From Gammaproteobacteria bacterium (GTDB taxonomy: Bacteria > Pseudomonadota > Gammaproteobacteria > JAPPPA01), in NCBI GenBank assembly GCA_030425645.1, contig JAUHZK010000009.1:2290-66289 (forward strand): DNA of 64,000 bases, written 5' to 3'. Below are positions 1 through 13,073 of this stretch, one piece after another; the first letter of the stretch is position 1; each line of letters begins with the position of its first letter. The position numbers were made by a program, and so were the translations under genes. The notes beneath the pieces were generated by a model. That model was given only the letters and a program-made list of their open reading frames with translations. It was not told the origin of the DNA and made no database searches.

Positions 1-2398
1 CATCACGATGGACCAATGCCTCTTGACGCGTACCCGCCAAAGCTTGTGATTTAGTTAAACGGGCGACCTGATCCAGGTATTCAACTATGCCTTTATTCTT
101 GCCCTTGTCGTCTGGCTCTGGATGTAATTGCGTAATGTGCTCCATCGCCCCTCCCAACAGCGCGAGAGCTTTCATGGGATCCTCGTATCCGCCGTAATCG
201 AAACCATTAAAAAATTCGTTTCGAATTACATCCAGCGTATCAAGCAGTAGCGTTAGCGCTTCACCGGAAACATCTACTGGAGATTTATCAGACTTGGAAT
301 CCCGAGTGTAGGTAGCGATTGCTTTTTTGAGCTCTTCACCGATGCCGATATAGTCGACTATCAATCCCCCAGGTTTATCTTTCCAAACGCGGTTTGTACG
401 AGCAATTGCCTGCATAAGTCCATGGCCCCTCATGGGCTTATCTACATATAAAGTGTGACATGGAGGCGCGTCTGTACCTGTTAGCCACATATCCCTGACG
501 ATAACTATTTCTAACTCATCTTCTGGATCCTTGAAGCGCCGCTCCAGCATTTTCCGGTCATCCTTGGACGTATGGTGAGCGCGGAAATGCTCCGGATCTG
601 TCGCACGTTGACCAGTCATGACAATTTTAACTTTGCCTTCAAGCAAGTTTGGGTTATGCCAATCTGGGCGTAGTTTGATTATTTCATCATAGAGAGCGAC
701 GGCCGCTTCTCGAGAAATAGACACAACCATCGCCTTACCTGGCAAAGACTGTTTGCGTAACTCCCAGTGGTTTACTAAGTCCTCTGCTAGCTTTTCAATA
801 CGCCCCTCGGCCATAGCGAGCGCTTCAAGCCTCGTGTGGCGGCCTACAGCTCGATTTTGTTCAGACTCGTCCTCATCCTCGGTATTCTCTAAGAACTCAT
901 CATGAAGAGCTTGCTTTTCAGCTTCATTAAACTCTAACTCGATGATCCGCGATTCATAATGAACCGGAACTACAGCGCCATCTTCTTGAGCGGCAACCAT
1001 GTCGTAAACGTCAACATAAGTACCAAATACAGACTGGGTATCCTTGTCTTCTAAAGAAACAGGAGTACCGGTCATACCGAGATAGATCGCATTTGGAAGA
1101 GCGTCACGCATGTGTTTGGCCAAACCGTATTTGGTTTCACCTGTCACACCATCTATCTTGGCGGTAAACCCGTACTGAGTCCTATGAGCTTCGTCGGTAA
1201 TCACAACGACATTTGAACGGTCGCACAAAGCACTATTTGTTTGACCACCCTCAGGCGCAAATTTATTGATGGTCGTAAAGTAGATTCCACCGGCTGGTTG
1301 GCTAGAAAGCATCTCCTTCAACTGCCGCCTCTTCTGGGCCTGCCTTGGCTCCTCGCGCAGAGATTCCTTGCAACTGAAGAATGTTTCATATAGCTGACCA
1401 TCTAGGTCGTTTCTGTCGGTAACGACAACTACCGTAGGGTTGGCAAACTCCTCTCGTTCCCTTAAGGCCATCACATAAAAAAGTGCTAATAGCGATTTAC
1501 CCGACCCTTGAGTGAACCACAAAACACCGCCCTTACCATCTTTCGTATCAAGCAGCGCCGACGAGGCTCTCTCCACAGCCTTTTTAACACCATGGTATTG
1601 GTGCCACTGAGAAATAATTTTTGCGGACGGGCTTCCATCAACCCGCATGAAGGCTACAAAACCCTTGAAAAAATCCAGTAGCACTTCAGGCTTGAGCAAC
1701 CCACAAACTAATGTTTCCAGCTCTAACATACCATCTGGAGAGCGCTCCCCGTCTATAAGCCTCCAAGGCGAATATCGTTCGAAATCAGCCGTCAACGAAC
1801 CGTAACGAGCAACAACGCCGTCAGATATGACATTCATTAGGGAGTACGAAAACAGTTGAGGGATATCCGCCTTATATGTCTGAATCTGCAGGTAAGCAGA
1901 CTCAATATCAGCATTTACGTCAGCAGGGTTTTTAAGTTCCAGAACGACCAATGGAAGACCATTAACAAACAACACGACATCTGGTCGACGAATTTTCGCT
2001 CCATGCACCGTAAATTGCTGAACCACTAGCCAATCGTTATTAGATGGAGTTTCAGTATCAATTACGCCAGCGCGAATTATTCTTTTATGGCCCGTTTCAT
2101 CTTCAATCTCCACGGGCACACCATTTCTAATCCAGTCGTAAACTTCGCGATTACCATCAATTAATGACTGAGTACTGTAATCCGCCAACTTGGATACTGC
2201 TTGTCTGAGTGCGTCGTTACTTAAACTAGGATTAAGCGCACTAATTCCTTGCTCGAGACGAGGACGCAGAACCACTTCGCTATAACGAGTTCGAGCTTCA
2301 TGACTGCCACCAGCAGAAACCATCTCACCGGTCAGGCATTCGTAACCCAAATCTGAGAACCAACTTAATACTGCATCTTCTAAATGACCCTCTAGCAA
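1..2398 (-). CDS. hsdR: Type I restriction enzyme R subunit (HsdR), N-terminal about 800 aa. The gene continues past the window's left edge.
   Basis: No stop on the minus strand from about 2400 to position 1, and no ORF is listed there, consistent with one ORF running off the window. The reverse-complement translation near the 5' end reads LLEGHLEDAVLSWFSDLGYECLTGEMVSAGG, a typical HsdR N-terminus. Reverse-complement of about 1450-1500 reads DGKGGVLWFTQGSGKSLLALF, the helicase motif I / Walker A box of HsdR. The gene lies directly downstream of hsdM and hsdS. The start is uncertain: a TTG at 2396-2398 is in frame just after a stop. Confidence 0.8.
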   Translation of the reverse strand, partial: MLEGHLEDAVLSWFSDLGYECLTGEMVSAGGSHEARTRYSEVVLRPRLEQGISALNPSLSNDALRQAVSKLADYSTQSLIDGNREVYDWIRNGVPVEIEDETGHKRIIRAGVIDTETPSNNDWLVVQQFTVHGAKIRRPDVVLFVNGLPLVVLELKNPADVNADIESAYLQIQTYKADIPQLFSYSLMNVISDGVVARYGSLTADFERYSPWRLIDGERSPDGMLELETLVCGLLKPEVLLDFFKGFVAFMRVDGSPSAKIISQWHQYHGVKKAVERASSALLDTKDGKGGVLWFTQGSGKSLLALFYVMALREREEFANPTVVVVTDRNDLDGQLYETFFSCKESLREEPRQAQKRRQLKEMLSSQPAGGIYFTTINKFAPEGGQTNSALCDRSNVVVITDEAHRTQYGFTAKIDGVTGETKYGLAKHMRDALPNAIYLGMTGTPVSLEDKDTQSVFGTYVDVYDMVAAQEDGAVVPVHYESRIIELEFNEAEKQALHDEFLENTEDEDESEQNRAVGRHTRLEALAMAEGRIEKLAEDLVNHWELRKQSLPGKAMVVSISREAAVALYDEIIKLRPDWHNPNLLEGKVKIVMTGQRATDPEHFRAHHTSKDDRKMLERRFKDPEDELEIVIVRDMWLTGTDAPPCHTLYVDKPMRGHGLMQAIARTNRVWKDKPGGLIVDYIGIGEELKKAIATYTRDSKSDKSPVDVSGEALTLLLDTLDVIRNEFFNGFDYGGYEDPMKALALLGGAMEHITQLHPEPDDKGKNKGIVEYLDQVARLTKSQALAGTRQEALVHRD

Positions 2399-2486
2399 AA
2401 TCTGTCCTTCTAATATTTATAGTTTGAATCTGTGCATTTGAAGCCAAATGCAGTCAATTACTACAACAAAATGTTACCTTAAATCT

Positions 2487-3827
2487 TCAGACCTGATTGG
2501 TTATAACTCGAGGAAGGAGCATATCTCGGATCATTTCTTCTTTCTGACTTTGTTGCTCTACCGAAGAAATGAGTTTGAATATCGGTGTTGTGATCTCATC
2601 AAATTTCGCCAAGGCCCCTTTGTTTGGAACCAAGACATCCATATTTTTTATTGTTCTAGAATTCACCGCAGTGGCAATTGAAGAGGTACTGCCAAGGCTT
2701 GAAAAATCAAATGTTCTCAGATACATCAAAAAATATTTTTCAGAAATAGAATCTTTAAAGTCATGAAAATGAGCAATCGCTTCATTTGTCGTGAGCTCGG
2801 TGCCAGCTATCGCTGTACGCCCCACAGTAAGCTTGAAGCTAAGCAGTACGGAATCACGAGGTATCACTCTGACATTAAATCGATTAATTGCCTCCTCAAC
2901 CAAATACTCTTTACTTGAACGTAAAAACATCCCCCCTTTACCCATATCTTTTATAGAAACCCAAACGTAGTTGCTTTCGCCATAAACATCAAACCAGTGT
3001 TCCTCTTTTCTAGGAGGCGTCTTACCTATTCCAATCGAAGATATATCCTTAGCCAACTTAAATTCCCAACCTTCTGGCAACCATTCACCAGACTTAGATA
3101 AGACAAATTTATCAGGGAAATTCTCACGAATGCTTCTGGGGGTTATTTGCTGATTTAGTTGTCTATATCGTTGTCGAGATAAAGCTCTTTTCTGAAATTG
3201 ATCTGGAATAGAATTTCCAGCTTCCAAGGCATTGTCGATTACAACGTCAAAATCAACGAACCAACTTTTATAAATAACTCTAAGCGTTTCGTTCAAAGTT
3301 ATAAGCACCTTATTATTGCAGGCAACCTTGTTATCGAGTGCTAACAATGGCGCTACTATTTCTGCCTGCTTTTCTGGCTCAGGGACATCAACAGTAATAG
3401 AGGAGAGTGCTCCTCCCGAGATTTCCTTAAATGTAGACCCGGAAGCACTGGCCTCGATTTCAGGAGTTTTATGTTTCAACGCGTAGTAGAAAAATTCACT
3501 ATTGTGTCCGTTTTTTAACACTAAGCTTTTGAAGCCTTGACTCGTAGATACTGGGTTTTTGGCAATAGCGACATAACCAATAGGCGCCCGCGAAGAAAAA
3601 AGCACAGCGCCTTTTGGTAACAATTTGGCGCTCGAATCATTCAAACCAGATTCTGTTAAGAACCGTTTCCCAGCGCCAACATACATATCACGGTTACTGG
3701 ATAAATCTTTTGGCGTCAGCCATGGAATACTCCCTTCCCAAAAAGTTGGTTCCTGGGTATCTGGTGTCCCACCTCCTATCACTGTGGCTACGTCCCCAAT
3801 AGTTAATTTTTCCCAATTAGAGCTCAT
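2487..3827 (-). CDS. hsdS: Type I restriction-modification specificity subunit (HsdS) with two target-recognition domains.
   Basis: The 446-aa product starts MSSNWEKLTIGDVATVIGGGTPDTQEPTFWEGSIPWLTPKDL, the canonical HsdS start of a target-recognition domain. It shows the repeated two-domain layout separated by conserved spacer regions. It overlaps the hsdM stop by 11 nt, a typical hsdM-hsdS coupling. The gene is AT-rich. Confidence 0.88.
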   Translation of the reverse strand: MSSNWEKLTIGDVATVIGGGTPDTQEPTFWEGSIPWLTPKDLSSNRDMYVGAGKRFLTESGLNDSSAKLLPKGAVLFSSRAPIGYVAIAKNPVSTSQGFKSLVLKNGHNSEFFYYALKHKTPEIEASASGSTFKEISGGALSSITVDVPEPEKQAEIVAPLLALDNKVACNNKVLITLNETLRVIYKSWFVDFDVVIDNALEAGNSIPDQFQKRALSRQRYRQLNQQITPRSIRENFPDKFVLSKSGEWLPEGWEFKLAKDISSIGIGKTPPRKEEHWFDVYGESNYVWVSIKDMGKGGMFLRSSKEYLVEEAINRFNVRVIPRDSVLLSFKLTVGRTAIAGTELTTNEAIAHFHDFKDSISEKYFLMYLRTFDFSSLGSTSSIATAVNSRTIKNMDVLVPNKGALAKFDEITTPIFKLISSVEQQSQKEEMIRDMLLPRVITNQV

Positions 3828-5418
3828 AACCGATAACCTTTAACTGCTGCAGCATTTCGGTTTGCAATTCTGCAGATTCATCTAGCAATTCTCTAAGTTC
3901 GCCACACAATGCTCCCATTTGCTCTTCATAGACGCTACTGTCGAATAGTTTCCCTTCTGCTCCAACGAACCTACCAGGAGTAATTTCATAGTTCTTTTCA
4001 GCGATGTCAGAGTGGGTGGCGCTTTTACAAAAACCAAGCTCATCGACATATTCTTTTGAGTCCGCGAACTCAGTGCCTCGCCAGCGGTGATATGTTTGTG
4101 AAATCTTTTCGATTGTTTCGTCTTGGAAAACAACCTGTGTCTTAGATATGTTCTCCGTCTCCAAGTTAGAACAATCCAGGAAAAGAACCTCACCATTTCT
4201 ATTGATGGAGCCATTGCCCCCCTCTGTCTTATCCTTTGAAAGAAACCAAATACATGCAGGTATAGTCACGTTTGAGAATAGCTTGGGCGGCAAGGCTAAG
4301 ATACATTCAACCTGATCGCCGAGAATCATAGCTTTTCGTATAGCGCCCTCGCCTGAAGACTGAGTAGTGAGCGAGCCATTCGCTAGAACAATACCTGCTC
4401 TTCCCTTTTGAGATAAACGGCTGAGCATATGCTGCAACCACGCATAGTTTGCGTTTCCGGCTGGCGGTACACCATATATCCAACGCGGATCATCTTTAAG
4501 AGCGTTTCCTTCCCAATCAGAGATATTGAATGGTGGGTTTGCGAGAATATAGTCGGCGCGTAGTTTGCTATGTTGGTCTTCCGTAAAAGTAGACCCGTAG
4601 GTTTTTCCAATATCTCCCTCCAAACCATGAACAGCCAAATTCATAAGGCATAACTTACGAGTAGCAGCCATATACTCCTGCCCATAAATAGCTAAATCAC
4701 CAACGTCTCCAGCTTTTTTTGCGTGTGCTTCCTTAAAGCGATTTGATTGAACAAACATGCCGCCTGACCCACAAGCAGGATCATAAATTTTGCCTTTGAA
4801 GGGGGCTAAAATTTCGACTATCAATGTTACGACTGATTTAGGGGTATAGAACTCTCCAGCACGCTGCCCTTCCGACATAGCGAACTTGCCCAGAAAGTAC
4901 TCGTAGACTTCTCCAAAAATGTCTTTGCTACCATGCGTTTGGGGGTCGAATTTGATTCTGGCAACTGTCGTCATCAACTCTCCCAATTTGCCAGGACCCA
5001 ATTCTAGTCGCCCAAAATCTCTGTATAAAACTCCTTTCAGGCGAGGGTTATCTTTCTCAATAGATGCCATAGCATCATCTAATAGCTGAGCGATATTTGA
5101 ACTAGAAGCCTTAGACAAAAGGACCGAAAATCGCGCTTCTTCTGGCACCCAAAAGACGTTGTCTTTGTCATAAAACGTTTTATCTTCAGTAAAAGCTGCC
5201 CCTGCATCTAGCCGAAGTTCCTCGTCTTCGATAAATAGTTCAGATTCAGGGTTTTTTAGCTCATCACGAATGAAGTCTCCCTGCGCTTCAAACATATCCG
5301 AAACATATTTCAGGAAAGTCAGCCCCAAAACTGGATATTTGTATTGTGCCGCCGAAACGGACCCCCTTAGGGAGTTAGCCATTCGCCAAAGTTCGGCTTT
5401 AAATTCTTCAGTTGTCAT
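3817..5418 (-). CDS. hsdM: Type I restriction-modification N6-adenine DNA methyltransferase subunit (HsdM).
   Basis: The 533-aa product has an N-terminal HsdM_N-like region (LRGSVSAAQYKYPVLGLTFLKYVSDMFE), an AdoMet-binding motif (IYDPACGSGGMF), and the catalytic NPPF motif (ILANPPFNISDW). Confidence 0.92.
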   Translation of the reverse strand: MTTEEFKAELWRMANSLRGSVSAAQYKYPVLGLTFLKYVSDMFEAQGDFIRDELKNPESELFIEDEELRLDAGAAFTEDKTFYDKDNVFWVPEEARFSVLLSKASSSNIAQLLDDAMASIEKDNPRLKGVLYRDFGRLELGPGKLGELMTTVARIKFDPQTHGSKDIFGEVYEYFLGKFAMSEGQRAGEFYTPKSVVTLIVEILAPFKGKIYDPACGSGGMFVQSNRFKEAHAKKAGDVGDLAIYGQEYMAATRKLCLMNLAVHGLEGDIGKTYGSTFTEDQHSKLRADYILANPPFNISDWEGNALKDDPRWIYGVPPAGNANYAWLQHMLSRLSQKGRAGIVLANGSLTTQSSGEGAIRKAMILGDQVECILALPPKLFSNVTIPACIWFLSKDKTEGGNGSINRNGEVLFLDCSNLETENISKTQVVFQDETIEKISQTYHRWRGTEFADSKEYVDELGFCKSATHSDIAEKNYEITPGRFVGAEGKLFDSSVYEEQMGALCGELRELLDESAELQTEMLQQLKVIGYEL

Positions 5419-5465
5419 GTAATAAGTTGCTCAAAAATTTTTGTAATTATCATTAATAAGTAAGC

Positions 5466-6059
5466 TCAGTTTTCGAGCCTGTTAACTATTGCCGGATTCA
5501 TAGGAAACCCATGGCGCTTTAGCGCAGCATCTAAGGTTGCCCGAGTCACATTAAAATGCGCTGCCACATTTGTCTTAGTTATTTCTGGATCTGTCAGCAT
5601 CGCTGCGGCCTTCTTTGCATCAGAGGCATCCATCTTCGGTGTCCTCCCACCCTTGCGACCTCGGGCACGAGCGGCAGCTAAACCAGCCATCGTTCGTTCT
5701 CGTATCAAGCTACGCTCAAATTCAGCCAATGCACCAAATAAATGAAACACTAGTTTCCCCCCAGCGCTTCCTGTATCAATATTCTCAGAAATGGACCTGA
5801 AGGCGATATTGCGATGTTCGAGATCCGCTACGATTCCAACTAAATCCTTCAATGAACGACCGAGACGATCGAGCTTCCAAACAACCAGAACATCACCAGC
5901 CCGCAGCATTTGCAAACAAATATCTAGCTCCGGACGCGCTATTCCGGCACCGGGTACCTTTTCTTCATAAATACGCTCACACCCATCCCGCTCAAGTGCA
6001 TCGATCTGTAGGCCGGTGTTTTGATCTTGACTGCTAACGCGGGCATAACCAATCTTCAT
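5466..6059 (-). CDS. Serine recombinase of the resolvase / DNA-invertase family (Hin/Gin/TnpR-like).
   Basis: The 197-aa product starts MKIGYARVSSQDQNTGLQIDAL, with the catalytic serine in the conserved YARVSS context. Its size and C-terminal helix-turn-helix (TNVAAHFNVTRATLDAALKRHG) fit small serine recombinases. There is a ribosome-binding site (AAAGGTG) 7 nt upstream. Only 47 nt separate its stop from the hsdM start on the same strand. Confidence 0.85.
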   Translation of the reverse strand: MKIGYARVSSQDQNTGLQIDALERDGCERIYEEKVPGAGIARPELDICLQMLRAGDVLVVWKLDRLGRSLKDLVGIVADLEHRNIAFRSISENIDTGSAGGKLVFHLFGALAEFERSLIRERTMAGLAAARARGRKGGRTPKMDASDAKKAAAMLTDPEITKTNVAAHFNVTRATLDAALKRHGFPMNPAIVNRLEN

Positions 6060-6224
6060 TTAACGCACCTTTGATATACACAGATTGTTATACATAGTTT
6101 TTATACACATATCCACCATTATCTAACGTAATTTAATTACACTAGGACGGTGTATATAAAACGTTGGTTTTATAGCGCATAAATTTATAACACTTAGAAA
6201 AATGCATAAGAAAGGAAACGGGTC
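6060..6224. promoter_or_regulatory. AT-rich divergent promoter region carrying repeated TATACA(C/T)A motifs. It is a candidate recombination site (res or gix) for the adjacent serine recombinase.
   Basis: Three direct copies of the motif sit at about 6075-6082, 6089-6096 and 6102-6109. An inverted copy (TGTATATA) sits at about 6151-6158, and a near-palindrome (TTTATAGCGCATAAA) at about 6169-6183. The region lies immediately upstream of the recombinase start codon, where res sites of resolvases normally lie. Confidence 0.4.
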
Positions 6225-7514
6225 GTGGCAAATACAGAACTTGATTTCAAAATCCCAAGCCTTAAGGATGACATCTGGATCAATCAAGCTGAAAAAGCGA
6301 CAGAGTTAGCCGCTAAGATTCCAGGTGCACAACAGCCTAGAGTTTCCCTCACTGCTCTTGGTAAACAATATCAGGCCGACCCAAACAATCCTGATTGGCT
6401 TTCAGAACTGCGGGAGAAGCTCGCAAGCGCAGATGGTCACTACATATCATCAATATCAATTCAATTAACCGTCCCGGGTACAAGTGCTCAGCAACAAGGC
6501 CAGGTGAGTTTTTCGATAACGCGCATACCGGCTGAGCCAGTAGCAACATTGAAGGTTACGATCGGCCAGCACACAGCTGACGCACTGGATAAGCTGACAG
6601 CAATTAACACAGTAGTTGCGGAATTCCAGCCCATTGACCCTGTAGAGTCAAAAATTAGTTTGGCAACCGATGATGCCGCAGAGTATTTACGTCAGCTTGA
6701 CAATAAGCTCCAGCAATTGTCGAACGTTGCGATAGAACAGACGGAAAAAGTGACCGAAAACCTCCGAGAGCAAGCTCTTCGCAACCAGCAAACACTAGAC
6801 ACGGAGCGTGAGAAACTCCAAGCCGACTTCGATGCCAAGCAAGATGAACTTAAGAAACGCGAAGATATACTGACTAATCGTGTAAAAGATATTGACCTGG
6901 CTGATGCTAAGACTTCGCGCAGAAAGCTTAGAGACCAACTTAAAGAGAAACTGGACAGGCTTGCTGGAGAGTTAAAATTTACCAATCAAACCAATATTGA
7001 GCGCCGAGTGCTCTACGGAGTTCTAGCTTTCGGATTGATAGTTGGTGCAATTATTATAATTGAGGCCGGGCTTGCCATGACCAAGCCTGACGCAACAACT
7101 GGTAATGGCGCCTTCCTTATTGGCGCTCGTGCAACTGCTGGCTCAATATTGTTTGGCAGCGTACTAATCTATTTCATCCGCTGGCAATCAGCATGGGTTC
7201 ATCAACGAACAATGGAGGAGCTTAGGCTCCTTCGAACAAGCTTAGATGTTGAACGAGCAAGCTGGGTAGTAGAAAGCTTAGTAGAGTTCAAAAACGAACA
7301 AATCGACCAAATACCCGATGCGCTTCTTACAGCAGTTACTCGGAATCTCTTTGCAGACCCCGAACAGAATGCTGCAATCACTACTCCGGTAGATGATGTT
7401 GCAGATATACTCAGAAACGGTGCGGAGTCAGTCAAGCTTAAGCTAGGTGACCACGAAGTAGTTCTAGACCGCCGAAGCCTAAAAAAATTATCTGCTGCTC
7501 AAAATGCTGATTGA
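6225..7514 (+). CDS. Hypothetical coiled-coil membrane protein: N-terminal soluble domain, long coiled-coil, two transmembrane helices, C-terminal domain. No recognisable family.
   Basis: GTG start with a ribosome-binding site (AAGGAAA) 8 nt upstream. The 429-aa product has a heptad-rich, charged segment (about residues 150-255: LRQLDNKLQQLSNVAIEQTEKVTENLREQALRNQQTLDTEREKLQADFDAKQDELKKRED). Two hydrophobic helices follow (VLYGVLAFGLIVGAIIIIEAGLA and AFLIGARATAGSILFGSVLIYFI). No catalytic motif was recognised. Confidence 0.6.
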   Translation: MANTELDFKIPSLKDDIWINQAEKATELAAKIPGAQQPRVSLTALGKQYQADPNNPDWLSELREKLASADGHYISSISIQLTVPGTSAQQQGQVSFSITRIPAEPVATLKVTIGQHTADALDKLTAINTVVAEFQPIDPVESKISLATDDAAEYLRQLDNKLQQLSNVAIEQTEKVTENLREQALRNQQTLDTEREKLQADFDAKQDELKKREDILTNRVKDIDLADAKTSRRKLRDQLKEKLDRLAGELKFTNQTNIERRVLYGVLAFGLIVGAIIIIEAGLAMTKPDATTGNGAFLIGARATAGSILFGSVLIYFIRWQSAWVHQRTMEELRLLRTSLDVERASWVVESLVEFKNEQIDQIPDALLTAVTRNLFADPEQNAAITTPVDDVADILRNGAESVKLKLGDHEVVLDRRSLKKLSAAQNAD

Positions 7515-8063
7515 GGACTTTTAACCCCTACCACCAAACCTGTCCAAGCCACGTATACACGAAGCAATCAACGTGAAAAACCTAGGAACGTTGGATACTT
7601 TTCGTAGCAAAGAGCATAACTAATAACGCATTGCTAATTTACAGAACACCGTCCGCTGGTTTGTATTTTCGCCATCAAACGCGCCTGATAGACTAGTGGA
7701 ATACTCAAAGAATCGGACTAACCCGCCCCAAACCGAGTAGTTAGCACTTGTAAGTTGTAACTGAACCATATGCAGTGCATACGGCTACTAGCACCACCAG
7801 TCGCCCCAGAAATATAAGCAATTCAACAGAAAACCAACAAATACGGAGAAACGTATTGCCCAAAATATTGAGCTATGCGATGTTAGCTCGATGTTTGCTC
7901 AAGTTCGCGACATAAAGACACAACACAAATGCCCCGTGGGCAAACAGTTATGTGCAACAAAATCGTATGTTTCTTCTGCCCATATCGGATATATCCCGTT
8001 TTGGCCGCTTGGTAAGTAACTTGATAAGCAACAGCGAAACAGCCGAAGTCCGGCCACTGTCAA

Positions 8064-8432
8064 TTATTTAGTCCAGCAACTTTGCGGAGACCGGTTTCCC
8101 AATCGGTCCAGCGACAAATTCGTACAACCACTATCGTTTAGCTGATCACCTGTCGCAGTGGCCGTTACTAAATAGCCGCGATCAGCCGGGGTCGTTACTT
8201 GAAGCATATAACGGCCGTTCTCACTGCTAGCTGCGGCAACATTACTAAAAGTGCCATTAAGCGTCACCAGCTGCTCTTGCCGTGCTGCCAGCTCCATCAT
8301 TTCGCCTTGCACGTCTTTACGATGACTCTGCAGCACCATCAAACGATAATTCGGTATCGCCCAAGCCGCGATAATGCCGGCAATGGCCATGGTGATTAGA
8401 ATCTCGAGTAAGCTAAAACCACGTTGTTTCAC
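8064..8432 (-). CDS. pilE: Type IV pilus minor pilin PilE.
   Basis: The 122-aa product has the class III prepilin signal MKQRGFSLLEILITMAIAGIIAA (G|F cleavage site, Glu at +5). It is the last gene of the fimU-pilVWXY1 operon. Confidence 0.85.
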   Translation of the reverse strand: MKQRGFSLLEILITMAIAGIIAAWAIPNYRLMVLQSHRKDVQGEMMELAARQEQLVTLNGTFSNVAAASSENGRYMLQVTTPADRGYLVTATATGDQLNDSGCTNLSLDRLGNRSPQSCWTK

Positions 8433-8459
8433 AGCTTCTTATCCTTGCATTGGCAACAG

Positions 8460-11400
8460 TTACCGCAGCTGACGCCAAGTTGAGCGACTACGTTCATAAC
8501 CGATTGGGTTAACCACTGTGCGCTCTATGCCACCGTCGGCGCCGCTAGTTAGATGAATTTCATTACCGTCTGCAGTAATGAGAATGGTTGGCACTGGATT
8601 ATAAGTACCATCAGAGAAACGCCCAGCTGGCGTTAATAGATTACCGTCGCCATCATCGTAGCGGTCATCAAAGGTCACGGAGCCATCACCGTTAAGGTCA
8701 AATGGCGGCAACACGGTTGGTGATCCATCCGCGGCATCCAATTCAAACAGCCAATTGCTAATCGCCGGGTTACAAATCGCTTCGTCGAGAATAGTGGTAG
8801 AGATCAGCAAACGATCATTCCTTAGAATCGGATCGGCCACGACCCTTTCGCCTTGGTTATCAGCCGTAGCTAGCGCTGCCACACTGCTGGCCTCAGCCAG
8901 ATCCATATACCAGCCTAACGTGGTGCTCCAATCAATGGGACCGTCAGCCTGACCATTGCTATCGCCATCATCGGTATCGCTACTAACAATTCTGATAACA
9001 GCGCTTTCTTGGCTACCATCCAGATCCGTATCAATATTGACGTTGACGGAATCCAGAATCAGGCGGCGCCGGTACTTGGTTTTATCACTAATATTTAAGC
9101 CCGTACTTTCGTTCTTGTCCCATATGCCATAGATCGACTGGGTGTAGTGCACTTCACCAACAGCATCAGCTTCCAACATTTCGCCGGTACCAAAAATCAC
9201 CAACTGACCCTCGTCCGCCGGGTGGTTCGGGTGCAACATCACCATCGGCTCGGTCGTAATCGGTTGTGGAACCCCACTAAAGTTGGTCGCTTGGAACAAC
9301 GCCGCAGGGTCGCCGCCACTGCTGGCAGAGAAACCCCAGTTGGCCTCATCGGTATCAGTAAGATCCAACTTCCACAAATTACCAACTAGGTCACCGGAAT
9401 AGACGTAATCAACGGAGCGGTCATTCTCAACGTCAACAACAGCCATTGTCGCTAGGCCATTAGGCACAGAAGTCGGTAAGTTAATGGTTTGCAGCAGGCT
9501 ACTACTGTCATCAACTAAATCCGGCAAAGTGACGGTAACACCCGGCGTTAGCAGTACTTGGCTAAGGTCAAGAAACGCCCCTACCTTGGTGTCGAAGGTT
9601 CGCACCAAAATACCCGTTTCCATATCAATCGCATAAGCGTAAGCATTACCGGTAACGCTGAACGACAGAATAGATGTCGAATCCAAGGAGGTATCGACAT
9701 CTTGCAAACCCAAATCAATTTCGGTGTTGTTATAACCGTTACTCATTAATACGGCCCAGTCACCAGTGGCGTTGGCGTCGCTACCGAAACCAAAATCGGC
9801 TGCCGTAAGCACGATATTGGGCTGCGCGAAGGTATACCCCATACCCGCATGTCCACGCTCCTCATCGGTTTGTAGAATTACGTCGAGAAGCGGTTCTACG
9901 AAGCTGGCACCAACAAAATTTTCAACCAAATTACCCAAGTCCAAAAAGCCAATATCACAAAGCCCCAGCAAGGCATCACAGAGCGCATCTTGAATAAGGT
10001 CGTTCACTAGCTGTTTCAGTTGTCCCGACAAAGAACCCGCATCGGTAAACTCCCACAACACAACCTCTTCAGCATTGTTTTCAGAGAAGCGTCCAGCCTG
10101 ATAATTTCCAGAGCTGTCGTAGCTACCCGGATCAGTGACATCCAAGGCATAGATGCCCTGACCACCTCGTCCTAAAGAACCGACCAATACCGTTCGCCAG
10201 CATGGCGATGAGGCACCACAGCCCGGATAGCGACCAAACACATCGACCACACTAATCTGTCCATCGACATAAGCTTCCGGAGCAAAGTCCGTATCGGCAT
10301 AATCTTTTAAGTTACTCAGTACCCTCGATGGCACAAACGCAATCCGCTCTTCACCCGTGGTGGCATCAAAGCCATGCAACATGCCGTCATTAGCGCCGAC
10401 ATACACCATGGGCGCACGGTCAGCATAATCGAGGGCAAACTGGTGATATCGTTTAGCGGCAATATCAGATGGGTTTTCAAACTCATCCGGATAATCAAAA
10501 TTAGGAGCGCCAACAAACACAGGATTACTCGACAGGATTGGTCCCAGCACGGTGCTCGTTCTGTCTCGTTGAGTACCGCCGTTCTGCTGCTCTCCTGAAC
10601 GCTCACCACGAACATATTCAATCTCAGCCGCTGACAAGCCATCGGTGATACCAATGGTTTCCAGCAAACCTTCTAAACCGAGAGCATTTAGACCGCTTAA
10701 AATCGTGTCCAATAACGGTTGAATCGGCAGTAATAACAAATCTAATGCGCTGCCAACAGCGCCAAGCAAAGTACCCAGAATATCTAAGCTTAGAATCGAG
10801 TTACCAACGCCTTCCAACTGGCTACCAATACCACCTATAAGTGGAATAGCCCCAAAAAACTGAGCATCGGCCAAGGCCGTAGTCGTAAACGGAATGCCAC
10901 CACTGTTATATCCAGTGGCAACACTCGCCTCACGACGCGGATCGTAGGTCATCACCACCCGGCCACTATCACTGGTTAATTGCGAGGCTGCATCCCACTG
11001 CTCCGTGAGAGTGCCATCCGCGCCCAGCTGGTAAGCAATTAAATTGCCAGACCAATTATCAAAGTTGTAACTGGTGGTGAAAATCAGCGTATTGCCATCA
11101 AACTGAGTCGACGAAGCCGTGGTATTGGTGCCCGATAAGCGACTACCACCAATTTCATTCAATGCAGCAATCAGCTGCGCCACCCCGCCACTGCCGAGTC
11201 CACTCAAGTATTGACCACGGCCATTAGCAGTAGCGTGTTTTAGCTCTGTTAGTAGGGCCGCATATTCAAAAGCATCGCTGACATCCGGCTCATAGGGCGC
11301 TGATGCCGGTAATGCAAACAACGGCGTTGGCCAGTTGCCCATCCCGGCCAAAATATCATCAACGTCACCACTGCCCGCCTCAGCCGAAACCACTAGGGCA

Positions 11401-13073
11401 TGGGTATGCATACGTTGTGTGCCCTCTAGGCCTGGCTGCAGGTCATCTTCATAGGCATCCATAGCGGCATCGGCTAAGGTTCCAGCGACACCATCAGCAT
11501 AAGGCTCGCCATCGCTGGTACTACTGTCATCGCTGTCGTGGTCAGTAGCGGGCGTTAGAGTATTGTGACTTTGTTTGCTGTCGCCCTGCGCGCCTGTTTC
11601 TGCAGGATAGTCCGTGTGCGACACGGTTAAACCGTGTGCGGTACTGTAACCATCGGTTACCAATACGGCATTGTGAGCCTGACACTCACCACCATCAGCT
11701 TCCGCTAGAACCGGACAGGAGCTATCTCCCACCACATTCTGGTTTTCCTGGGTTTCAGTGCCACTGAAATAACTGGCATAGCGTGTTGCAGCACTGCAGC
11801 GGAAGTAATTGCCAGCATCTTCTAAGGCGCGCCGTAACGGCGTTGCAGTGGCGGCTGCTTCGGTGCTGTAGATTGCATCCAATAGCGCGCGTTTATTACC
11901 AGATTGCAAGGAGTCGGCAGTCGTTACCGACACTGCGGGCACGGCAATAGCGTCATTCTGATGAATAGTTGCATAAGCCAGAGCCAGCCCATTTGCCGCT
12001 TCAACCAGACTTGCCGCCACGCCTTTGGCAACTAACTCTCGGCTGCGGTAGTACTGGAACCAGTTGGCAAAATTCACCAAGGTAGCATCGGTATTCGCCA
12101 ATCCAGTCAGGTCAACTTCGGTGCCATCGGCTTCGTAATAAAGCGCGACTTTGTAACGTGTATCCACTTCATCAGTACAGGTGAACAAACCAAGCAAGCC
12201 ACAACTGTAAGAACGACTAAAGAACTGATGGGTAATGGTGTCGTAGTTACCATTCGCCAAACGAATAATCGAAGTCGGCTGGTGCACAGACTTAATATTT
12301 AACGTTGCTGAGCTAGCGTTATATGGGTCGAGGCGCACCGCTAAAGGGTTGGCGTCAGCATAGGCAACACCGGCGCTATCAACCCCAGGCCAAGGGCTGT
12401 AGGTCTTATTCGGGTCAAAATAAATGGCGTTAAAACTTGCCGAACGTAACTGCCAAACATTAGCCAAATCACCACTTTGATCTGGCGCAGCGGAGATTCC
12501 TGCTGCGCTGCGCACCCATGAAGTTGATGCCAAGGCATCCAGTAAGCGCTTGGAGGGCGGTATCTGTGCGCAGAATGGGCTCGCTTCCTCATCTGGCAGT
12601 CGCAAGGCATTAACCGCAGCATTGCTTAGGCCGCTGTCGCGGCAAGTACCCGCAGCTGAGTTAAACCGCTCTGGCACAGGAAACAGCCACGGGTATATTA
12701 AACGCCCGTCATCGGTAGCACGCGCCATACCCTGCGCTTGGTCAGCGCCGCCATTACGCTGGCCACCACTGCCTGTTTTCTCGACCGTGGTGTCTGCCGC
12801 ACGATGATCTAAGGTAAAGCTAGACGACATACTTAGAGAGTCGTCCATCAAAATCAGCACATTGGCGTCAGCCTGCGCACCTAAAAATAACGGGCTTTCA
12901 TTCAGCGAGAACTGCCGGTGAGTAAGGCCAGCCAGGTCTAGGCTTAATGCCTGAAGCGGTGCGACCACTAGCATCAAGACTAAGCCCAACAGCAGGTTAA
13001 GCCCTGCCGGCCTACACAAACGGCTTCGCCAATGCATGCGCCTATTTAAAGCAGTTGTTTTAAAAGCCATGAT
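8460..13073 (-). CDS. pilY1: Type IV pilus tip-associated adhesin PilY1, unusually long at about 1537 aa.
   Basis: The listed ORF (8460-13205) overlaps the pilX 3' end; the internal start MAFKTTALNRRMHW at about 13073 gives a signal peptide. It has an N-terminal vWA-like motif (VLILMDDSLSMS). It has the C-terminal PilY1 beta-propeller region (PMVYVGANDGMLHGFDATTGEE), a calcium-loop-like segment (DVENDRSVDYVYSGDLVGNLW), and ends RSTWRQLR. A Gly/Leu-rich low-complexity insert precedes the C-terminal domain. Confidence 0.85.
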   Translation of the reverse strand: MMAFKTTALNRRMHWRSRLCRPAGLNLLLGLVLMLVVAPLQALSLDLAGLTHRQFSLNESPLFLGAQADANVLILMDDSLSMSSSFTLDHRAADTTVEKTGSGGQRNGGADQAQGMARATDDGRLIYPWLFPVPERFNSAAGTCRDSGLSNAAVNALRLPDEEASPFCAQIPPSKRLLDALASTSWVRSAAGISAAPDQSGDLANVWQLRSASFNAIYFDPNKTYSPWPGVDSAGVAYADANPLAVRLDPYNASSATLNIKSVHQPTSIIRLANGNYDTITHQFFSRSYSCGLLGLFTCTDEVDTRYKVALYYEADGTEVDLTGLANTDATLVNFANWFQYYRSRELVAKGVAASLVEAANGLALAYATIHQNDAIAVPAVSVTTADSLQSGNKRALLDAIYSTEAAATATPLRRALEDAGNYFRCSAATRYASYFSGTETQENQNVVGDSSCPVLAEADGGECQAHNAVLVTDGYSTAHGLTVSHTDYPAETGAQGDSKQSHNTLTPATDHDSDDSSTSDGEPYADGVAGTLADAAMDAYEDDLQPGLEGTQRMHTHALVVSAEAGSGDVDDILAGMGNWPTPLFALPASAPYEPDVSDAFEYAALLTELKHATANGRGQYLSGLGSGGVAQLIAALNEIGGSRLSGTNTTASSTQFDGNTLIFTTSYNFDNWSGNLIAYQLGADGTLTEQWDAASQLTSDSGRVVMTYDPRREASVATGYNSGGIPFTTTALADAQFFGAIPLIGGIGSQLEGVGNSILSLDILGTLLGAVGSALDLLLLPIQPLLDTILSGLNALGLEGLLETIGITDGLSAAEIEYVRGERSGEQQNGGTQRDRTSTVLGPILSSNPVFVGAPNFDYPDEFENPSDIAAKRYHQFALDYADRAPMVYVGANDGMLHGFDATTGEERIAFVPSRVLSNLKDYADTDFAPEAYVDGQISVVDVFGRYPGCGASSPCWRTVLVGSLGRGGQGIYALDVTDPGSYDSSGNYQAGRFSENNAEEVVLWEFTDAGSLSGQLKQLVNDLIQDALCDALLGLCDIGFLDLGNLVENFVGASFVEPLLDVILQTDEERGHAGMGYTFAQPNIVLTAADFGFGSDANATGDWAVLMSNGYNNTEIDLGLQDVDTSLDSTSILSFSVTGNAYAYAIDMETGILVRTFDTKVGAFLDLSQVLLTPGVTVTLPDLVDDSSSLLQTINLPTSVPNGLATMAVVDVENDRSVDYVYSGDLVGNLWKLDLTDTDEANWGFSASSGGDPAALFQATNFSGVPQPITTEPMVMLHPNHPADEGQLVIFGTGEMLEADAVGEVHYTQSIYGIWDKNESTGLNISDKTKYRRRLILDSVNVNIDTDLDGSQESAVIRIVSSDTDDGDSNGQADGPIDWSTTLGWYMDLAEASSVAALATADNQGERVVADPILRNDRLLISTTILDEAICNPAISNWLFELDAADGSPTVLPPFDLNGDGSVTFDDRYDDGDGNLLTPAGRFSDGTYNPVPTILITADGNEIHLTSGADGGIERTVVNPIGYERSRSTWRQLR

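Follow-up and report, generated by a model that had tools for sequence, protein, structure and literature searches.

The invertases Hin, Gin, Cin and Pin act at sites with a core of the form A-tract-C(C/G)-NN-(C/G)G-T-tract and a non-palindromic centre, of which two, in inverted orientation, surround the segment and one lies upstream of the recombinase gene; enzymes of the Gin type normally use a Fis-bound enhancer, not accessory sites. PaeR7I was reportedly presented by Vaisvila et al. in 1995 as a case of restriction-modification genes linked to an invertase-like gene. Linkage of restriction-modification and invertase-like genes has long been noted (PMC2853133), and the hsdS "epigenetic inverton" has multiple hsdS genes or half-genes that bear inverted repeats and adjoin a recombinase (PMC7672463). 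Among resolution sites, the classical Tn3-type res comprises three subsites, each an inverted pair, and measures ~120 bp in all, four to seven helical turns separating the centre of site I from that of site II (PMC12217951), and the res of Sin comprises an inverted-repeat site I, a spacer, and head-to-tail accessory recombinase motifs (PMC2428073). Transposons of the Tn5053/Tn402 type and their descendants, the class 1 integrons, are known as res hunters: they prefer res sites as targets and use the resolvase of the target (PMC7765201). In SGI1, an integron lies 71 bp before the resolvase gene, in the spacer between boxI and boxII, and its removal restores an active three-subsite res (PMC12217951).

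We analyzed a gammaproteobacterial DNA stretch of 64,000 nucleotides (the window), in which a repeat-dense segment, 6060-6224, forms the gap between divergent genes encoding a small serine recombinase and a 429-aa protein. An initial annotation had located the repeats directly 5' of the recombinase ATG and of the divergent 6225 gene, which is indeed their position, and had offered a res or gix recombination site, an invertible promoter, or a mobile-element junction as explanations. Comparison with homologous loci leads us to assign a probability of about 0.75 to the reading that the neighboring Gin-like recombinase has its cognate, res-type site at 6054-6177, which probably doubles as operator and promoter of the restriction-modification operon. 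The stretch is very probably an element of an established kind, somewhat unusual in layout, and not an invertible switch. The positions of all features are listed in Table 1.

Table 1. Positions of genes, repeats and predicted recombinase-binding sites in the window (offsets are counted in nt from site I)
Feature	Position	Strand	Sequence or remark
hsdR	1..2398	-	TTG start 2396-2398; leaves window at left edge
hsdS	2487..3827	-	single copy, two target-recognition domains, without inverted repeats
hsdM	3817..5418	-	start 47 nt past recombinase stop codon
Small serine recombinase, 197 aa, Gin-like	5466..6059	-	Pfam Resolvase 7.6e-43; ATG 6057-6059
Possible inverted partner of R3	6054..6065	+	CTTCATTTAACG; by reading the sequence
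Accessory half-site R3	6068..6079	-	GTATATCAAAGG; offset 72; overlaps ribosome-binding site
TATACAYA copy 1	6075-6082		TATACACA
Accessory half-site R2	6082..6093	-	GTATAACAATCT; offset 58; head to tail with R1; overlaps putative -10
Putative sigma-70 promoter, recombinase operon	6087..6115	-	TGGATA (-35, 6110-6115), 17 nt, TATAAC (-10, 6087-6092); by eye
TATACAYA copy 2	6089-6096		TATACATA
Accessory half-site R1	6095..6106	-	GTATAAAAACTA; offset 45; in promoter spacer
TATACAYA copy 3	6102-6109		TATACACA
A/T-rich spacer, 45 bp	6107..6151		between site I and accessory half-sites
Inverted copy of the repeat	6151-6158		TGTATATA; outer part of left arm of site I palindrome
Site I, candidate crossover site, 12-2-12	6152..6177		GTATATAAAACG TT GGTTTTATAGCG; centre 6164/6165
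Perfect 8+4+8 palindrome	6155-6174		TATAAAAC-GTTG-GTTTTATA; hix/gix-like
Near-palindrome	6169-6183		TTTATAGCGCATAAA; overlaps outer edge of site I
Divergent 429-aa gene	6225..7514	+	no assigned function; no Pfam or NCBIfam match

The array heads the gene string recombinase-hsdM-hsdS-hsdR. The 47-nt gap between the recombinase stop codon and the hsdM start makes co-transcription of these two genes probable, and the corresponding gap is also short in most homologues (9-55 nt in most loci). Because hsdR leaves the window, it was missing from the list of open reading frames; a GAAGGA ribosome-binding site precedes its TTG start. The recombinase has an intact catalytic Ser9 and an intact R7, D64, R65, R68 motif. 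Its best solved relative is Gin (1.6e-50), with which its C-terminal DNA-binding domain aligns, and gamma-delta resolvase (4e-25) and Tn3 resolvase, which together range from ~1e-23 to 4e-25, are weaker relatives; the score against Sin (~1e-12 to 2e-14), set against that for Gin, places the enzyme outside the Sin/beta clade. With Gin as best solved relative, the recombinase groups with the invertases, and the site core, AAAAC-GTTG-GTTTT, is hix/gix-like. It shares 63% identity over 175 residues with PaeR7IN and 47% identity with Uvp1 of R46.

The three direct copies of TATACA(C/T)A and the inverted copy that had been described from the sequence are all present, the direct copies sitting in 14-nt units, 14 and 13 nt apart. 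On both strands of the 64 kb, TATACAYA has three matches, all at the array, where ~2 would be expected anywhere in the window, and the 6-mer TATACA is not over-represented across the window as a whole; the extended half-site GTATAWMAA has four matches in 64 kb, all at the array, three on the minus strand and one on the plus strand. The strongest feature had been overlooked: it is the perfect palindrome at the heart of site I, unique in the window even when three mismatches are allowed, and what had been described as the "inverted copy" forms the outer portion of this palindrome's left arm. We take site I to resemble hix/gix crossover sites. It begins 118 nt 5' of the recombinase ATG, and on the recombinase strand it reads CGCTATAAAACC AA CGTTTTATATAC and is followed by three head-to-tail half-sites. 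The direct repeats are better regarded not as the three subsites of a res but as single half-sites of an accessory part, with the palindrome as the crossover site. R1 and R2 lie head to tail, 13 nt apart, and we found no inverted partner for either; R3 and its possible partner could together make up a "site III" of the 12-2-12 form, lying over the start codon with its centre at 6066/6067, the partner being weak in the window, where 7 of its 12 positions agree with the cognate half-site. The spacer may be a bending site or an architectural-protein site, and no HU/IHF site was recognized in it by eye. The near-palindrome reported earlier does exist, one base left of 6170, and is not conserved in homologues (alignment columns 1-24).

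The whole element, 6054-6177, is 124 bp long, near the ~120 bp that is usual for a res (PMC12217951), and abuts or overlaps the recombinase ATG. As is general for res sites, it lies upstream of a small serine recombinase gene, falls within a span of roughly 90-130 bp, and joins a dyad site I with a 2-bp centre to further motifs with the same word, GTATA(A/T)(A/C)AA. With the res of Tn3/gamma-delta and that of SGI1, it shares a place directly 5' of the recombinase gene, a length of ~110-125 bp, a site I farthest from the gene, overlap with divergent promoters, which are putative in the window, and a spacer between site I and the next site that, in homologues of the window locus, is hit by res hunters (PMC12217951, PMC7765201). 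It differs from them in that their sites II and III are inverted pairs, their site I centre is AT or AC, they adjoin a transposase or island backbone, and their recombinases show less similarity to the one studied here. A possible partner making an inverted 12-bp pair, itself weak, is seen for R3 alone, and site II is head to tail, so the array lies outside the classical Tn3 three-subsite definition; this counts against the res reading, as do the weak fourth half-site, the poor match in many homologues of the outer part of site I on the side of the 429-aa gene, and a recombinase nearer to the invertase Gin than to any biochemically studied resolvase. With the Sin/beta res of Gram-positive plasmids, the array shares the order of site I, spacer, and head-to-tail motifs, but Sin has two accessory half-sites with HU/IHF in the spacer, whereas the window has three half-sites and a possible inverted fourth. 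The core, non-palindromic centre, and position upstream of the recombinase gene are those of the Hin/Gin/Cin/Pin sites, but the window has one site and accessory half-sites. Judged from sequence, the layout is a hybrid of the Sin and Tn3 patterns on a Gin-like enzyme, res-type and belonging neither to the Tn3 three-subsite class nor to the Sin class.

Homologues of the recombinase were collected from one genome per species, giving a best identity of ~70% and covering Marinobacter, Idiomarina, Halomonas, and many other lineages. Those with 53-70% identity, from several phyla, have the same layout at the same spacing. The upstream regions of 23 homologues align almost without gaps, with site I, the spacer, the three repeats, and the ATG at fixed distances. 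The common design is an AAAC(G/C)-NN-(C/G)GTTT palindrome starting 117-118 nt before the ATG, an A-tract spacer, TTG, three direct repeats, and AAGG with the ATG. The spacer length of 45 nt is conserved, its A-tract is common to the homologues (alignment columns 64-71), and the offsets of 45, 58, and 72 nt after site I recur at 54-67% identity, including in loci assigned to other phyla. The inverted partner of R3 is clearer in homologues (AAAAGG-TA-CCTTTT), and in one locus (L015) the "site III" was recovered as a site-I-like match.

The recognition word within this fixed frame is specific to the lineage, being GTATA in the window and GTCCAA, GTAAAT, GTACAG, or CTCTCAA elsewhere, and within each locus the repeats share the word of the outer palindrome arm. 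When half-sites were extracted from the homologues by alignment, the agreement between site I and the repeats of the same locus averaged 4.77 of 7 positions, compared with 4.35 when loci were swapped between site I and repeats, and none of 5000 permutations reached the observed value. Across the loci, the recombinase is the only conserved neighboring protein. The pattern is the signature to be expected of several binding sites for one co-evolving DNA-binding protein.

Seven homologous loci carry the end of a Tn5053/Tn402-family element 70-97 nt before the recombinase ATG, in the interval between site I and the repeats that is the equivalent of the spacer. In L008, L020, L027, L032, and L038 the terminal inverted repeat CTTCTGAAAAYGACA ends 75-97 nt before the ATG; the other two cases are paeR7IN on pRSB105 (L087), where a Tn402 end precedes the ATG by 70 nt, and uvp1 on R46, where the end of the In1 integron precedes it by 86 nt. 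Because positions and elements differ between loci, the insertions are, as far as the sequences tell, several independent events; there is no Tn5053/Tn402-family insertion in the window itself. Together, the conserved architecture, the co-variation, and these insertions give good support to the res site that had been one of the initial suggestions. At L038, on a Methylomicrobium lacus plasmid, a 4.1-kb Tn5053-family element (1792-5903) adjoins the recombinase gene and has only genes of the size of tniA, tniB, and tniQ between two terminal repeats. Just beyond its left end are further repeats resembling transposon ends, suggestive of nested insertions, and L038 was rejected as a source of an intact res across the transposon, its left flank being another transposon end.

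Two of these recombinases have been named before. PaeR7IN, called a "DNA invertase" (pRSB105 copy, DQ839391), likewise opens its gene string, with genes for a methylase and for restriction following on the same strand, and retains the repeat-bearing stretch before the ATG. It differs in being linked to a type II system rather than the type I system found here, and in having its site I displaced by the Tn402 end; a literature search yielded no functional data on PaeR7IN. Uvp1 of the IncN plasmids R46 and pKM101 has direct GTAACA-type repeats before the ATG, like the repeats of the window, and differs in being a plasmid backbone gene outside any restriction-modification operon whose reported res includes integron sequence. 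Uvp1 is reported to catalyze site-specific resolution (Tosini 1998, as cited in PMC12217951).

If 6054-6177 is a res-type site, a recombinase dimer would bind the hix-like 12-2-12 site I, with strand exchange at the central AA/TT, and further subunits would occupy the head-to-tail half-sites R1 to R3, the third perhaps pairing with its inverted partner over the start codon. The A/T-rich spacer would let the accessory sites fold back, and the array would then serve as a topological filter, restricting recombination to a pair of copies in direct repeat on one molecule. A dimer or cointegrate of the module's carrier, whether plasmid or island, would supply such a pair, and the chromosomal site would be single-copy and without a partner. 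A res site is normally present in a single copy and meets its partner only in dimers or cointegrates, so the absence of a second site does not refute a res; with no partner site seen, recombination may never occur in this chromosome. The same binding would repress the recombinase-hsdM-hsdS-hsdR operon, and an occupied site I may also repress the divergent 429-aa gene, by analogy with resolvase at the res of Tn3/gamma-delta.

The regulatory side of this mechanism draws on a putative promoter that was recognized by eye within the array. The TTG of its -35 element and the T.A..A of its -10 element are nearly invariant in the 23 homologues (T86, G88, G108, T109, A112). The promoter scanner missed it because the -10 element lacks the final T; the promoter and terminator scan returned one weak plus-strand promoter-like match and no terminator, which is at chance level. 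A weaker, putative promoter-like sequence toward the 429-aa gene, TTGGTT-16 nt-TATAAC, also found by eye, overlaps site I. The half-sites cover the putative -35 and -10 elements, the ribosome-binding site, and the ATG, and binding should therefore repress the operon, so that the array is probably also the autoregulated promoter of the recombinase-hsdM-hsdS-hsdR operon.

Repression could be the whole function of the array, the recombinase having been kept as a repressor that times or limits the restriction-modification operon and the 429-aa gene, with no recombination taking place. The single copy of the site in a chromosomal island, the placement of the half-sites over the putative promoter and the translation start, the position of the recombinase as first gene of tightly spaced and often defence-related operons in many homologues, and the conservation of the module with the 429-aa gene in three lineages would all fit such an operator. 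We nevertheless consider it unlikely, since the catalytic Ser9 and the R/D/R/R motif are intact, the hix-like site is conserved with a defined 2-bp centre that a repressor would not need, and the res-hunter insertions in homologues imply a res occupied by resolvase (PMC7765201). Repression and recombination are moreover compatible, and Tn3 resolvase does both.

Similarity between many loci starts exactly at site I, which agrees in part with the mobile-element junction that the initial annotation had considered, although in this lineage the 429-aa gene on the far side travels with the module. A specific form of this idea is that site I is the recombinase-proximal, attL-like junction of a cassette integrated there by the small serine recombinase. 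Nucleotide similarity between L007 and L015, L014 and L016, and L014 and L009 begins within site I, the upstream neighbors of the homologous recombinases are unrelated to one another, and in many loci the outer part of the distal half-site, which is the half nearest the 429-aa gene in the window, matches the cognate sequence poorly. An integrated cassette would be expected to leave a distal hybrid site, combining a cognate half-site with the same centre, and the 6 kb downstream contained none in any of 22 loci. The gene across site I is conserved with the module in this lineage, small serine recombinases with accessory sites are biased to resolution, and exchange between res sites would produce mosaics with the same breakpoints, including the similarity that starts inside site I; we regard the cassette junction as very unlikely.

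The gix-like suggestion holds insofar as the site is hix/gix-like and the recombinase is closest to Gin; the inversion system that would go with it is unsupported. Were the array one boundary of a segment that inverts, as in a hix/gix-type switch that flips a promoter or a neighboring gene by way of an inverted partner, the similarity of the recombinase to Gin, the non-palindromic AA centre of a hix/gix-like site I, and the location of site I just 5' of the recombinase gene would be accounted for, as gixR and cixL sit just upstream of their recombinase genes. The partner, however, was not found. No second site I exists in the 64 kb at 3 of 20 mismatches or 1 of 10 core positions, a near-match at 13048, in pilY1, being a chance match with a different centre and different flanks, and no second full site lies within 6 kb in the 23 homologous loci, so that the two inverted sites flanking a segment in Hin and Gin systems are seen neither in the window nor in those loci; a partner could still lie to the left of the window. 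No significant inverted repeats were found in 1-9000. Further copies of the motif had been envisaged around hsdS, in inverted orientation among others, but no second site was present in the window and hsdS was free of inverted repeats; a phase-variable type I system would have multiple hsdS genes or half-genes that bear inverted repeats, and hsdS inversion was rejected for this single-copy gene. Twenty-one metagenome contigs encoding the recombinase or the 429-aa protein (15 + 6) are all collinear with the window, which is weak evidence because assemblies hide minority forms; the contigs with the exact recombinase protein are 99.9-100% identical to the window. The conserved accessory half-sites next to site I are a trait of resolvases, not of invertases. 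An invertible promoter or on/off switch, as initially proposed, is on this evidence highly improbable. Five palindrome matches in viral contigs had no recombinase nearby and were set aside as chance palindromes.

Chance alone, in a divergent promoter region rich in A/T, could be taken to account for the repeats: GC is 0.34 over 6000-6299 against ~0.52 for the window, short A/T-rich words recur easily, and TATACA is not over-represented window-wide. The clustering of all longer-motif copies at the array speaks against this, and the fixed spacing and sequence co-variation across many lineages effectively refute it.

The res-type array lies in the first 8 kb of the window, where GC is 0.41-0.45, compared with ~0.52 in the remaining window, and the next genes after this low-GC part are a type IV pilus cluster. 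From the lower GC and the adjoining pilus cluster, we read the first 8 kb as an island gained by horizontal transfer. A 550-bp non-coding stretch, 7515-8063, with a GC of 0.42-0.45, separates the 429-aa gene from a pilin-like gene (8064-8432); no repeat or att-like feature was identified in it, and the right-hand boundary of the island is probably located there. A search found no similar DNA in E. coli genomes, and Rfam gave no RNA family within 5400-8500. Loci L007, L010, L015, and L023, from Idiomarina, Marinobacter, and Pseudidiomarina, carry a nearly identical recombinase-hsdM module. The 87-89% protein identity of their HsdM, together with similarity from site I onward, indicates that the module spread horizontally in recent time.

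Genes directly downstream of the homologous recombinases (L007-L054) encode HsdM in 15 of 44 cases, and others encode type ISP, MmeI, Mrr, ResIII, AAA_13, AbiEii, or TIR proteins. A Tn3 transposon context was rejected: a Tn3 transposase occurs once among the 44 downstream neighbors and not at all among the frequent upstream neighbors. A further, rather unlikely reading is that the recombinase-res unit goes beyond a remnant of plasmid resolution and is a dedicated front end of defence operons, in which bound recombinase would set the expression of the downstream defence system and site I would be an exchange point for defence cargo or neighboring DNA. If so, the unit could delay restriction until methylation is established after transfer, like the C proteins of type II systems, and the gene for the 429-aa membrane protein would be a co-regulated accessory of type I restriction.

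The 429-aa protein combines an alpha/beta domain at its N terminus with a long helix and a predicted pair of membrane helices. Its sole match across Pfam, NCBIfam, and PADLOC is a weak one to AbiZ (9e-5), and its AlphaFold model is of moderate confidence (pLDDT 71, pTM 0.34), with no Foldseek match in the PDB below 1e-3. The family is rare, with 10 homologues found, and three of the homologues that were looked up adjoin type I restriction-modification loci. Homologues with 67% and 47% identity occupy the same divergent position beside a resolvase-hsdM string, and one with 31% identity lies directly after hsdR; in the 67% relative, the architecture of the intergenic region is retained and GTCAA serves as half-site. 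By its genomic company, the 429-aa gene belongs to the module in this lineage, and its product may be an uncharacterized accessory or abortive-infection partner of type I systems. Counting the window, L090-L093, and the contig of P0004, the family adjoins type I restriction-modification genes in four contexts.

The res-type reading would explain the repeat cluster as the working site of the neighboring recombinase, with coordinates for each half-site, and would make the array a marker of the regulatory and recombinational core of an acquired type I restriction-modification island. Such sites would be hot spots for mosaic formation and for Tn5053/Tn402 insertion, including that of class 1 integrons. 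Members of a widespread protein group, labelled "DNA invertase" or "recombinase family protein" in annotations, appear to carry a res-like array of fixed geometry, often at the head of defence operons. This brings a little-studied clade into the known biology of res without overturning current understanding; the novelty is modest and lies in accessory sites arranged in an unusual way and in the notable link to defence operons.

Five metagenome contigs (L001-L005) match the window without a difference as far as position 4006, inside hsdM. Their last 29-99 nt, past 4006/4007, form an IS3-family-like end that begins TGATACGCCACTAGCC, is absent from the window, and encodes ...LSPRQFEMKNVSV* on the reverse strand; the contigs end there. 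In the populations from which these contigs derive, an insertion sequence appears to break up hsdM, cutting it to 471 aa.
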